DNA from: a virus
DNA length: 64,000 bases
Reading direction: 5' to 3' (one strand)
IMG/VR virus record: IMGVR_UViG_3300003322_000730
Span: 13,100-77,099 of that record
Below the pieces are notes generated by a model. The model had not been told where the DNA came from. It searched no databases and worked only from the letters and a program-made list of their open reading frames with translations. The translations under genes were made by a program, and so were the position numbers. Below, piece by piece: positions 58,595 to 62,590 of the stretch (position 1 is the first letter of the stretch; the number at the start of each line of letters is the position of its first letter).

Positions 58595-59584
58595 TCATTG
58601 TACCAGCCGGCTTAAATAATCCAGCTTTTGCTTGCTGGGGAACCGGCTTCTGTAGTGTTCTGTTGTGGATATTTTTGAGTGGCCCAGGGCCTCCGAAACA
58701 ACCACCATAGGCACTTCTTCTTGCAGCAGGTGGTTGGTAAAGCTGTGACGTGCCGTGTAGCTTCTGAGATCTCCTTTCAGCCCCAGATCATCCCCGATCT
58801 GCTTCATGGCTTTGTTCATCAACAGGATGAAGTACTTCTTCTTGTCCTCCATCTCAATGGGCGTCATGCTGTCGGTGAATATCGGGAACAGATAAGAATT
58901 TCCGAATGTAGTGCTGCCCCATCTACTGATAATTTCCAAAGATTTCGGGAATAACACCCCTTCAATCTTGATGATCCTTTTTGATTTCGCCCGGGACTTC
59001 TCGCGGACAAAGACAAATTTCCGTTCTTCCAAGTCGATATTGGTCCATCTCAGAAGACAAATGTCCTTTGCATTCATACCGTTCGAAAAATATGAGAAAA
59101 GCCACATGTCCCGCAGAAACGCCTGCTTACTGTCTACGCATGGATAATCAGCAATCATCTGAATTTCCTCTTTTGTCCGAGGCTGGCGGGTGTTGCTTTC
59201 CGTGGGAACCGTGAAGCCGCCGTTTCCGAATGGATAATGTTCGTACTTCACCAGCCCCTCAATCATTGCTTGGCGGTACATGAACCGGATTTGGTTGACA
59301 TACATGCCAATTGTGGTAATGGATGCAGCGGTTCCCGGGTTTTTGGGGTCATGGCTTTTGTTGAGCTTCCCGTGTTTCAACATCCACGACTCATATTCTT
59401 TCAGCATCTGCTGGGTAATGTCCGCGAAAGTGATCTCACCTTTTCTTTTCTTGAACTTCCAGAACCTTTCCAGTGATCTGGCAGCGCCAGCGGTGATGCT
59501 GGAGTGGCTGAATTTTCCAGCGGCAAAAAGCTCTTCGGATCGGTGGCGCAGACGTGCGGCTATTTTGTGTTTGGTGGGGGTCAT
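58595..59584 (-). CDS. int: Tyrosine recombinase / integrase (SAM-like + catalytic domains)
   Basis: FSYFSNGMNAKD, REKS, YTARHSF, VSEALGHSKISTTEHY; start MTPTKH by ATGA overlap. Confidence 0.92.
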   Translation of the reverse strand: MTPTKHKIAARLRHRSEELFAAGKFSHSSITAGAARSLERFWKFKKRKGEITFADITQQMLKEYESWMLKHGKLNKSHDPKNPGTAASITTIGMYVNQIRFMYRQAMIEGLVKYEHYPFGNGGFTVPTESNTRQPRTKEEIQMIADYPCVDSKQAFLRDMWLFSYFSNGMNAKDICLLRWTNIDLEERKFVFVREKSRAKSKRIIKIEGVLFPKSLEIISRWGSTTFGNSYLFPIFTDSMTPIEMEDKKKYFILLMNKAMKQIGDDLGLKGDLRSYTARHSFTNHLLQEEVPMVVVSEALGHSKISTTEHYRSRFPSKQKLDYLSRLVQ

Positions 59585-59781
59585 GCTTCTCTCACGATTA
59601 TATGATCTGCGTAGCTCCATTCGCACAATAGCCTTGCCTTCCAATTTTCCGCTGCATTCTCGCAAATCGAATCCTCTTCGCGGCTACTAAACCCTTCGGG
59701 GATCTTAACGTCTATCGTTTCCCCATAGTGATGTGAGGAATCTGGGGTTCTTACGGATACTGCTATGGTTAATATTTTCAT
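59581..59781 (-). CDS. Small hypothetical protein coupled to integrase
   Basis: ATGA overlap. Confidence 0.6.
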   Translation of the reverse strand: MKILTIAVSVRTPDSSHHYGETIDVKIPEGFSSREEDSICENAAENWKARLLCEWSYADHIIVREA

Positions 59782-59847: not shown

Positions 59848-60339
59848 TTAGATATGTTTCCATGACTTTCGGTTAACAATCATCTTAATTGCATTCTTCG
59901 CTACCCCGAATCTTGACGCCAAGCTTCTCTGAGAATATCCACCAGACTCGTAAAGTTTCCTGATCAACAACACATCGGGGTTGGTTAGTTTTGATGTGTT
60001 CACACGGCTACCGCGAGCTACCAAGCCAGTTGCTGATGCATGAGCCATATTCATCTCATGGTCACACCATTCCAAGTTCCAGTGAGCATTGTTCTCTTTG
60101 TTTCCGTCCAAGTGGTTTACAAATGGGTAACTGTTTGGATTTTCAATGAAGTGTATGGCCACCAACCGATTAACTCGTTTAGAGAATATCCCATCTTTTG
60201 TCCTAAATGTGGCCCTTAAATATCCGCTTTTTAGCCTATTAAGTTTATGCACTCTCCCAGTTGAAGATTTCACTCTGCCCATATTCGAAACATAAAATCC
60301 ATCAAATCCACAAACCTGAGCCCATACCTCATTTTCCAT
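59848..60339 (-). CDS. NUMOD4-HNH homing endonuclease with C-terminal HTH
   Basis: YVSNMGRVKS, VNRLVA, VNHLDGNKENN..NLEWC. Confidence 0.92.
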   Translation of the reverse strand: MENEVWAQVCGFDGFYVSNMGRVKSSTGRVHKLNRLKSGYLRATFRTKDGIFSKRVNRLVAIHFIENPNSYPFVNHLDGNKENNAHWNLEWCDHEMNMAHASATGLVARGSRVNTSKLTNPDVLLIRKLYESGGYSQRSLASRFGVAKNAIKMIVNRKSWKHI

Positions 60340-60352
60340 AATGCTGTAAAAT

Positions 60353-60452
60353 AAAAAAGCTCAGGGATCAGTGGTCGTAGCACATCACCCTAAGCAATTA
60401 AATTTCTTTTATTACATCAGGGCTACGACCTCCTAATGATCAACCAAACTTA
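60353..60452 (-). promoter_or_regulatory. Promoter + kissing-loop attenuator leader of HNH gene
   Basis: TAAGTTTG; hairpin loop GGTCGTAGC complementary to GCTACGACC at the terminator apex; U6 tract. Confidence 0.7.
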
Positions 60453-61097
60453 CTATTCCTCCACCAAAAAACCAAGCCCTACCATAAAAAGGGATACAGT
60501 TTCGGCGACATATGGCACAAGTATGATCAGATACATGTCCTTTGGCGCTCCGAACTGCTCGACATAATGGTAGATCGGGGTGCAAAACGTGGATGAGCTG
60601 TAATAAATGAGCAATCCGCTGAATATCCAGAATACCGGATATGTTAGCAGATTTTGCACTTTTAGCGATTTAAGAAGCCCGTAAAACCAAAGCATTATAT
60701 ACACCAGCATCAACAAGCATTGAAGTGTTGGCGCTATCCTCAAAACGCGCTCCATTCCAGTGTCTATTACGTCAATGCCGTATATGAATAGAAATACGAA
60801 TGACCCAACAAAAACGATTTGCCTGTGCTTATCGATATCAATCGCCTCATAGCACATGCGGGCCAGGATACAGTAACTGATAAGTATAAACGCATTGTAC
60901 AAAAACAGGTTGTTGTGAACCTGCGATGCCATGTACAGCATTACAAACTCAATAACAAGTTTGGAAACGAGGTACAACGTAAAATACTTCTCGATTGATT
61001 TTTTGTAGTCGAGCCGGTAAATCATAACGGCCAGAGGAAAGATAGTTGAAGCGGTCGCCGCCGCCTCAACCGGAAATTTTAGAATGTGTTCGATCAT
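60453..61097 (-). CDS. Seven-transmembrane membrane protein (putative sensor)
   Basis: Seven hydrophobic segments; NNLFLYN and FWIFSGLLIYY motifs; ATGA overlap with upstream gene. Confidence 0.8.
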   Translation of the reverse strand: MIEHILKFPVEAAATASTIFPLAVMIYRLDYKKSIEKYFTLYLVSKLVIEFVMLYMASQVHNNLFLYNAFILISYCILARMCYEAIDIDKHRQIVFVGSFVFLFIYGIDVIDTGMERVLRIAPTLQCLLMLVYIMLWFYGLLKSLKVQNLLTYPVFWIFSGLLIYYSSSTFCTPIYHYVEQFGAPKDMYLIILVPYVAETVSLFMVGLGFLVEE

Positions 61098-61459
61098 GGC
61101 GAGCAGGAATTTGGGCACCTGGTACTAGAACCTCCGCCGCCAGTCTGCGGCGCTCCATCTTTCAGCCCGCATAGCTCAGTAGGAATTTCGAGCCTACGTC
61201 CATCGCTATCAGCCGGCACAATTACTATTCGCAATCCGTTCACATCTCTGCCGAAATCAACCCACACGCCGGAAGATTTGCCTTTGCATTGGCGCATCAA
61301 TTCTTTTAAAAATCGCTTTCCGAAAAACTCAGACCTTGGAGCGCCTTCCCCTGCTGATTCGAGGTAGTTATCTACCCATTGTTTGTGCTGCTCTTTGGAT
61401 ACGATTTCGCCGGATGTTTTTGAAAAATCTGCCATTAGTGGATGCTGTTTAAGTTCCAT
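61094..61459 (-). CDS. Small protein with C-terminal Gly run and CxxxC tail (putative signal/precursor; start may be 61435)
   Basis: GEIVS...W..NY...SEFFG...GVWVDFGRD..G.RIVIVPADSDG...GGGGSSTRCPNSCSP. Confidence 0.75.
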   Translation of the reverse strand: MELKQHPLMADFSKTSGEIVSKEQHKQWVDNYLESAGEGAPRSEFFGKRFLKELMRQCKGKSSGVWVDFGRDVNGLRIVIVPADSDGRRLEIPTELCGLKDGAPQTGGGGSSTRCPNSCSP

Positions 61460-61504
61460 CAAATTTACCTCTGCCGGCGGCGAATGCAAAGCCGGAAAGT
61501 AAGA

Positions 61505-61756
61505 TTACTTCAAGTCGATAAAATCTTCGATCCTCACGGCAAGGCTCATGGGGCTGATGGGTTTGTTGAATGTGAGCATAGATACGTATAATCGCCCAGT
61601 CTTTAAAAATTCATCACGCTCTTCTTCGCTCATTTCCCAGCAAGTAATAATTGTCCCATTCGGGTCGTTGTCAAACCGAAGCAGCGGAAGTGGCAAATAA
61701 ACTTCACTATCTTTTTCTATAATATCGCTCTGGTATTCAAATTCTACTGCTTTCAT
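61505..61756 (-). CDS. Conserved hypothetical phage protein
   Basis: YLPLP...IITCWEMSEEER..FLKTGRLY. Confidence 0.7.
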   Translation of the reverse strand: MKAVEFEYQSDIIEKDSEVYLPLPLLRFDNDPNGTIITCWEMSEEERDEFLKTGRLYVSMLTFNKPISPMSLAVRIEDFIDLK

Positions 61757-61757
61757 A

Positions 61758-61964
61758 TCATTTTGGCTCGTATCCGAGCGATTTAAGTGTTTCACTAACA
61801 TGCATCATTGCATTAAGCACTGAAATGGTTTCAGGATCTTGCAGTCCATTTATAAATCCGTCAAGGCTTTCTCTTGTTGGGCCGGGAAGATGAATATCAA
61901 ACGCTTTATGCACTATTGATGCGTCGGATAAATTATTCGCGAGGTCATTAAGATTCTTTGACAT
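61758..61964 (-). CDS. Hypothetical protein
   Basis: Packed ORF, start MSKNL. Confidence 0.55.
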   Translation of the reverse strand: MSKNLNDLANNLSDASIVHKAFDIHLPGPTRESLDGFINGLQDPETISVLNAMMHVSETLKSLGYEPK

Positions 61965-61966
61965 AA

Positions 61967-62395
61967 TTAGTATTGAATAATAGTAAGAGGCGACTTTTTG
62001 CCAGAAACGTGCTTGCACCTGATTTGCGAGAAGTCAGAGGCTATAAGCGAAAGAACAGACGCTTCTTGCCAGGTTAAAAAGCCATTGAGTGCTGTGAATG
62101 CGGTAGGGTCAGACATTCGGTAAAGGCCAAACGAAAACGGCACCATCAATACTCCGTCGCCGTCGGATTCTTTAAGCAGCAGCTCTTTTGCCTTATCCGC
62201 GCCGAACTGCTCTATCATTTTCGAAATGAATCGCTCACAGTCGTAAAATGCGGCCTTGCTGGATGCTTTGTCGAACCGGGTTGATTCTTTTTCGTCATCA
62301 ATAGTTGCAGAACTGATAGCGAATAGGTAGTTTGAGTAGGCCCGGATCGTCAATTTCAGGTCAACGGGCGTTTGGTTGAGGGTTTCTGTGGTCAT
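61967..62395 (-). CDS. Hypothetical protein
   Basis: 142 aa packed ORF. Confidence 0.6.
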   Translation of the reverse strand: MTTETLNQTPVDLKLTIRAYSNYLFAISSATIDDEKESTRFDKASSKAAFYDCERFISKMIEQFGADKAKELLLKESDGDGVLMVPFSFGLYRMSDPTAFTALNGFLTWQEASVLSLIASDFSQIRCKHVSGKKSPLTIIQY

Positions 62396-62590
62396 TTAAT
62401 TTCTTTGATTGAACACCATTTAATTTTTTCACTCGCGGCTATTTCTTCTTTTGTCATTTCGGATTGCTTTCGAGGCTCGTCGCGAGCGTAATCCCATAGG
62501 TAAATCGTTCCGTTAAGGTTGATTCTGCCGTACAGCTTGCATAATCTTCGTATCCCTCCCATAATCTTCTTTCTGTTTTGTTTTGGTTGG

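Follow-up and report, generated by a model that had tools for sequence, protein, structure and literature searches.

Phages carrying host quorum-sensing receptors or partial agr loci are known, and in the arbitrium system of Bacillus phages (AimP/AimR/AimX) the secreted propeptide AimP acts with AimR, a cytoplasmic TPR DNA-binding receptor. Among bacterial systems, ComQXPA and agr are called to mind by the gene order and the HisKA_3/LuxR pairing of the chromosomal cassette described below. Meanwhile, in the LiaFSR, VraTSR, and SaePQRS systems intramembrane-sensing kinases are placed under separate accessory membrane and small proteins, and LiaSR belongs to the HisKA_3 and NarL types. To our knowledge, none of these three systems occurs as a kinase-less pair on a phage. 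The closest phage precedent for the present locus is the Clostridioides difficile phage phiCDHM1, which carries agrD, agrB, and agrC without agrA (PMC3901668), and the government of a kinase by separate accessory proteins has been described for LiaFSR–LiaX of the Firmicutes (PMC10269926).

The DNA analysed in this study (the window, 64,000 nucleotides) comprises bases 13100–77099 of a 77,099-bp IMG/VR viral record, which is linear and, according to CheckV, 100% complete; among public sequencing runs, a root metagenome is the sole holder of this DNA, and no RNA holder is listed. The tyrosine integrase encoded at 58595–59665 (minus strand) indicates that the virus is a temperate phage. The two genes under study lie on the same strand, upstream of the integrase gene. 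One encodes a small CPxxC-tailed protein (61094–61435, minus strand), which has 113 aa when counted from Met9, the position at which its homologues begin, and the other encodes a seven-helix membrane protein (7TM) of 214 aa (60453–61097, minus strand). From its first ATG, the ORF of the small protein spans 61094–61459 (minus strand, 121 aa); the alternative upstream ATG is thus at 61459, and Met9 is the start in 5/5 close homologues. The two genes overlap in the tetranucleotide ATGA (61094–61097, minus strand), in which the TGA ends the small gene and the ATG begins the 7TM gene; we read this as translational coupling.

An earlier note on this DNA had described an ATGA-coupled pair, made up of a protein ending GGGGSSTRCPNSCSP and a seven-helix protein of 214 aa, which was located upstream of HNH and integrase genes. 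This description proved correct, as both ORFs are on the minus strand and the HNH and integrase genes are both found downstream of them on the same strand. The genes are real and not chance ORFs, since intact homologues of both are present in other phage contigs (23–86% identity) and are always adjacent there. In contrast, the view that the pair is set apart from its phage neighbours by composition was not borne out. The GC contents of the two genes (0.50 and 0.43) lie inside the spread of the window (mean 0.458, sd 0.027), and base composition was therefore rejected as a mark of recent capture.

The gene directly downstream of the pair codes for a NUMOD4/HNH homing-type endonuclease (59848–60339, minus strand). 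Like the integrase gene, it is regarded as context outside the module, and it is missing at the corresponding place in two further IMG/VR phages (L002 and L003) that hold the same pair. A gene for a DnaB-type helicase is situated further downstream, beyond the HNH and integrase genes. The scan for sigma-70 promoters, which does not cover Bacteroidota promoters, and for terminators gave nothing above shuffled sequences, and the 113 nt that separate the 7TM gene from the HNH gene (60340–60452) were empty in a simple terminator scan.

The model of the small protein (pLDDT 74.8) consists of two helices and a beta hairpin (about residues 14–75), after which a disordered Gly-rich linker leads to the tail. 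The folded, conserved domain accounts for about 85 residues in this model. The protein thereby combines the two features that characterise the small proteins of the cassette described below, a helix–helix–hairpin domain and a C-terminal CPxxC. Fold searches with the small domain gave no match (best Z 2.9, Foldseek E > 0.2). The C-terminal end reads GGGGSSTRCPNSCSP, and its CPNSC core is encoded at 61103–61117 (minus strand), corresponding to Cys107-Pro-Asn-Ser-Cys111 in the 113-aa numbering. The small proteins of L002 and L003 end in PNPPPVRCPNSCN and GGGDSNPVKCPVSCGP, respectively.

Conservation within the small protein is highest, not lowest, in this tail. Only the columns of C107, P108, and C111 are invariant in the alignment of 23 phage and chromosomal sequences (A6), and the CPNSC core is identical in phages whose small proteins share only 23% identity. 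Meanwhile, the GGGG run preceding the tail in the window is replaced by PNPPP in L002, which argues for a linker rather than a conserved cleavage site. The phage forms have a long Gly- or Pro-rich linker before the tail and the chromosomal forms do not. It should be noted that the copper site of Sco/SenC proteins has the same Cys spacing, with Pro after the first Cys. A CX3C pair carried on a flexible tail, such as this one, could serve as a thiol or metal switch.

Neither the phage small proteins nor those of the sister clade have a signal peptide or a hydrophobic N-terminus, and there is no upstream room for one either. Among the chromosomal small proteins, a signal peptide or lipobox is present in about 18/41 and there is none in about 23/41, so an extracellular role of the small protein is possible in some bacteria. 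As export signals are found in only about 18/41 and vary among close relatives, the small domain may act on either side of the membrane. Within the chromosomal set (L035–L094), for instance, a signal peptide is present in L052 and L053 and absent from their close relative L054.

The second protein was modelled by AlphaFold2 from a 51-sequence alignment as seven long helices (pLDDT 95.3, pTM 0.90), for which the positive-inside rule predicts an N-out/C-in topology. Helix 7 (residues 188–212) contains zero lysines, in agreement with the seven-helix protein without a retinal lysine that had been proposed before. The identity of a microbial rhodopsin was rejected because of this missing lysine and because the matches in a profile search of PDB sequences reached only E = 0.23 and 0.94. 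The best structural match found by VIA-align was a designed GPCR-like fold (Z 12.5, under the caution line of the tool for helical bundles), with many GPCRs at 10–12; a GPCR- or rhodopsin-like resemblance of Z about 9.5–12.5 is in the range that helical bundles can attain through arrangement alone. An AgrB-like peptidase was rejected as well, as no Pfam AgrB or AgrD match was obtained and there is no His or Cys among the 7TM positions that are at least 60% conserved.

The protein of the window belongs to a family of stand-alone 7TM proteins of ~215 aa that bear the motifs NNL and P.FWI..G, and its gene is directly downstream of the small gene. It keeps the consensus residue at 18/18 positions whose conservation in the family reaches 60% or more. 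These positions include NNL (62–64) at the outer end of TM2/TM3 and P.FWI..G (154–161); the latter is part of the stretch F-Y...L...P.FWI..G.L.Y, which is kept on the cytoplasmic side where TM5 ends and TM6 begins. Nine close homologues have 47 invariant columns in common, and the alignment of 51 sequences has no invariant column at all. The phage clade lacks a conserved 7-residue motif (sNp...d..nH) of the periplasmic TM4–TM5 loop while keeping the motifs of the cytoplasmic face. With its shorter TM4–TM5 loop, the phage clade may sense differently or not at all, and one may speculate that the phage 7TM protein still couples inward and reads either a different outside signal or none. The complex prediction for the 7TM and small proteins scored 0.00, which is below the mark and gives no answer in either direction.

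Searches of both proteins against Pfam, NCBIfam, and PHROGs returned nothing beyond one match to a PHROG of unknown function (E = 0.13), and 51 members of the 7TM family gave only scattered single weak matches in Pfam. In the ESM Atlas, both families are annotated as "hypothetical protein" of Bacteroidota without a common Pfam family. A word-based search yielded only metagenomic homologues, 9 for the 7TM protein and 5 for the small one. Using a HMMER profile of the 7TM protein, 1058 representative clusters were obtained at E ≤ 1e-3, nearly all of them 200–235 aa long. The profile also found matches in 69/301 evenly sampled Bacteroidota genomes, which have up to seven copies each, sometimes in tandem.

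The neighbourhoods of the chromosomal homologues were surveyed in about 12 kb around 60 chromosomal 7TM matches. The loci were annotated with HMMs of both input proteins and with kinase and regulator seeds confirmed by Pfam (HisKA_3 and HATPase_c for the kinase, Response_reg and GerE for the regulator). A histidine kinase gene follows the 7TM gene directly in at least 52/60 loci, and its start usually overlaps the 7TM stop by 3–57 nt. The kinase is of the HisKA_3 type, with ~260 aa, in 43 of these 52 loci, and 42 of the 43 have one hydrophobic helix at the N-terminus and are otherwise free of input domains. A LuxR-type regulator comes after the kinase in 40/60 loci. The gene directly upstream of the 7TM gene codes for a homologue of the small protein in 39/60 loci, and 27 of the 39 homologues have CPxxC near the C-terminus. 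These are strict script counts, and several of the 8 kinase-negative loci represent ORF-calling overlaps or contig ends. The order of the cassette, as read from these loci, is a CPxxC protein, a 7TM protein, a sensor-less one-helix HisKA_3 kinase, and a NarL/LuxR-type regulator.

Thus, the homologues of the phage pair are linked to two-component genes, and the Bacteroidota arrangement given in the earlier note, in which the pair stands next to a histidine kinase and a LuxR-type regulator, was confirmed in the chromosomal loci. We found no literature on this four-gene cassette and no Pfam or NCBIfam family for it. In 22 chromosomal four-gene loci, the input proteins are the most diverged parts, with mean p-distances of 0.81 for the small protein and 0.81 for the 7TM protein, compared to 0.72 for the kinase and 0.62 for the regulator. 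The distances of the small and 7TM proteins remained correlated after the distances of the kinase and regulator had been removed (partial r 0.42); this value is confounded by relatedness and is taken as only supportive.

The cassette occurs in several variants. Two or three tandem 7TM paralogues stand before one kinase in L054 (5980–8454), L049 (5977–7393), L087 (5950–7669), and L080 (6070–7387), and the kinase of L054 is of the PAS-HisKA and not of the HisKA_3 type. In L044 (960–3112) the small gene is placed after the kinase gene, and in L089 (5160–6956) there is a small-protein homologue on each side of the 7TM gene. A few chromosomal loci (L070, L080) are without a kinase. A weak search for fused or longer 7TM–kinase proteins found none.

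The 7TM proteins of L002 and L003 are 46% and 35% identical to that of the window. A tblastn search of the INPHARED phages gave no match to either protein, a scan of GTDB genomes with close-phage patterns found none, and the same was true of IMG/VR scans with three further phage-clade proteins. In the maximum-likelihood tree of 123 members, the sequences from the window, L002, and L003 form a 25-row clade together with metagenomic relatives (SH-aLRT 99), and this phage clade is nested inside a 47-row clade (SH-aLRT 98). The genomic context is known for 3/25 members of the phage clade, plus two on contigs of 57 and 77 kb. In the sister group, the loci L095, L097, and L098 have the full four-gene set, with a small protein that is free of a signal peptide and has a CPSTC or CPTSC tail, close to the CPNSC of the phages; the 7TM protein of the sister-clade cassette has 232 aa and its kinase ~286 aa. 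These sister-clade cassettes have a divergent Hsp20 gene on one side and, downstream, a DJ-1/PfpI gene (L095, 6207–6629; L097, 449–871 and 4523–5203; L098, 2373–3125), which is a weak hint at a stress regulon.

The phages have only the first half of this cassette. No sensor-less kinase follows the 7TM gene of the window, where the HNH endonuclease gene is found instead. The earlier statement that there is no kinase or regulator in the window could be extended to the whole 77,099-bp record (G000), in which HATPase_c, Response_reg, and GerE are all absent. HATPase_c and Response_reg are likewise absent from the other two whole viral records (G302 and G303); G000 was the sole record searched for GerE. 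All three records are 100% complete according to CheckV, and one of them has terminal repeats. The nesting of the phage clade among four-gene cassettes and the absence of kinase and regulator from the three phages together show, as far as gene content and phylogeny tell, that the phage lineage took only the input half, from a chromosomal cassette with a signal-peptide-free small protein.

The comparison with L003 shows the limits of the transferred unit. Upstream of the pair, three small early genes (61439–62406, minus strand) share 91.5% DNA identity with L003 over 971 bp (6642–7612 in L003). This block stops at 61439, 4 nt before the Met9 codon of the small gene, and beyond the breakpoint the identity to L003 is 23% for the small protein and 35% for the 7TM protein. 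The loss of identity at the 5' edge of the pair marks the cassette boundary, and its sharpness indicates that the pair was replaced as one unit between otherwise close phages. The two genes are exchangeable as one cassette. The idea of a "specificity pair" stands in this weaker sense, that of genes exchanged together, but the tail is invariant and not allele-specific. In L002 (8749–9453), the pair is directly upstream of the anti-repressor Ant (phrog_63, E = 6e-55), and in L003 (8670–9305) it precedes a protein with matches to phrog_6095 ("amidase") and phrog_129 (regulator). The nearness to lysogeny genes, namely the integrase gene in the window and Ant in L002, is suggestive only.

The pair is a real and conserved phage copy of the input half of a Bacteroidota signalling cassette that is still uncharacterised, and the two-component link of this cassette is confirmed at the level of gene neighbourhoods. 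In bacteria, the 7TM protein of the cassette would provide the membrane sensor subunit for a kinase that has no sensor of its own. The small protein would modulate the 7TM protein by means of its Cys-Pro-x-x-Cys tail, which may act as a switch depending on thiols or a metal. During infection or lysogeny, the 7TM protein of the phage would, together with its small partner, dock onto a sensor-less kinase that belongs to a cognate cassette of the host, where the two would replace the input proteins of the host or compete with them. It would then be the phage that sets the output of the LuxR-type regulator of the host, with this output either locked on or off or following what the phage pair senses. 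With neither a kinase nor a regulator in its genome, the phage most likely exploits a sensing pathway of its host or jams it. We put the probability that the pair is an input half acting on the sensor-less host kinase of a cognate cassette at roughly 0.55. A hijack or a jam of the pathway is plausible, and the direction of the effect may be either activation or jamming.

Of the readings considered, action by way of a host two-component system has the best support, given the nested position of the phage clade among the four-gene cassettes. The earlier note had anticipated a phage with just an input pair that acts in this way; the communication part of that proposal did not stand, for the reasons discussed below. 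More tentatively, one may imagine that the virus gives the receptor half to a sensor-less host kinase and re-addresses the pathway, that the LuxR-type regulator biases lysogeny, induction, or host surface and defence genes, and that the allele-like swaps match different host kinases. We know of no description of a two-component hijack at the level of the sensor subunit.

Other explanations of the pair have to be weighed against docking on a host kinase. Three complete phages do without kinase or regulator, and the captured pair might work without a host kinase, either in superinfection exclusion or defence at the membrane or in the handling of thiols or metals. Exclusion is often the role of small membrane proteins that are encoded close to an integrase or antirepressor gene. 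The phage clade has also diverged as a group, as seen from its shortened periplasmic loop and long Gly-rich linker. However, all positions conserved in the family are kept, including the motif of the cytoplasmic face, the only constant neighbour of the bacterial homologues is the kinase, and the kinase-less chromosomal loci L070 and L080 give no pointer to another function. We consider such an autonomous role unlikely. To the notion that the pair is a functionless remnant of a captured host operon we attach next to no weight, in spite of the fact that only half of the cassette is present and that phage carriers are few (three IMG/VR records, with INPHARED contributing none). The two ORFs are intact with their ATGA coupling kept, the homologues retain invariant motifs at 23–86% identity, the GC content matches the rest of the phage, and the pair has been retained at the same place in phages that are otherwise recombined.

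The pair could also serve peptide communication, as the earlier note had suggested in likening it to arbitrium. The small protein would then be a precursor from which the Cys tail is cleaved and, after cyclisation or another modification, released, and the 7TM protein would be the receptor in an arbitrium- or agr-like counting of phages or lysogens. The order of a precursor-like gene, a membrane protein, a kinase, and a regulator, together with the HisKA_3/LuxR pairing, does recall ComQXPA and agr; about 18/41 chromosomal small proteins are predicted to be exported by virtue of a signal peptide or lipobox, and the input genes are swapped as allele-like cassettes. A precedent exists in phiCDHM1 with its agrD, agrB, and agrC but no agrA (PMC3901668). 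Nevertheless, the small proteins of the phages and of the sister clade have neither a signal peptide nor the upstream room for one, and no peptidase, ABC exporter, or modifying enzyme is encoded in the cassette or beside the phage pair. The Gly run is not conserved, the conserved part of about 85 residues is a folded domain and not a leader, and the 7TM family is devoid of the invariant His and Cys of an AgrB-like peptidase. Pheromones that code specificity diversify, whereas the tail core CPNSC is invariant at an overall identity of 23%. A released arbitrium-like Cys peptide, with lysed neighbours as the source of the signal, is unsupported in view of the missing signal peptide, the variable Gly run, the invariant tail, and the folded domain, and we regard communication of this kind as very improbable.

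The locus can now be set beside the systems mentioned at the beginning. The two phage proteins are homologous to the first two products of the Bacteroidota four-gene cassette, with the same gene order, coupling, CPxxC, and 7TM positions; they differ from the cassette in having no kinase and regulator, a shorter TM4–TM5 loop, and a long Gly- or Pro-rich linker. Like the present virus, phiCDHM1 is a temperate phage with an incomplete host-derived signalling locus whose output relies on a host component. However, phiCDHM1 keeps the kinase and has no regulator, whereas both are missing here, the proteins come from unrelated families, and a secreted peptide can be recognised in phiCDHM1 but not in this phage. 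LiaFSR/LiaX, VraTSR, and SaePQRS resemble the bacterial cassette, as we infer it, in combining a sensor-less kinase with separate membrane and small inputs, but they belong to another phylum and show no detectable homology, and the accessory protein in our case is a seven-helix, GPCR-shaped bundle. The likeness to arbitrium is that a phage-encoded pair is situated near lysogeny genes and could in principle bias the lysis–lysogeny decision; here, in contrast, the small protein is devoid of a signal peptide, TPR and DNA-binding domains are missing, the tail is constant, and the partner is a seven-helix membrane protein. As for agr, the small protein of our phage is a folded domain of more than 100 aa and not a short AgrD-like propeptide.

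If the proposed docking is true, bacterial signalling would be attacked at a different point, by a sensor pair without a kinase that is directed at a host kinase without a sensor. The pair also provides a handle on a large family without an assigned function, which comprises more than 1000 representative clusters and is present, often in multiple copies, in about a quarter of the sampled Bacteroidota genomes; the phage copy may be looked upon as a natural minimal version of the input module. The pathway may be of importance to plant-associated Bacteroidota, given that a root metagenome is the source of the phage.

Away from the pair, ARAGORN called a tRNA-Thr (anticodon AGT) at 204–294 of the window (minus strand). 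With 91 nt it is unusually long, which may be due to an intron, a long arm, or a false call.
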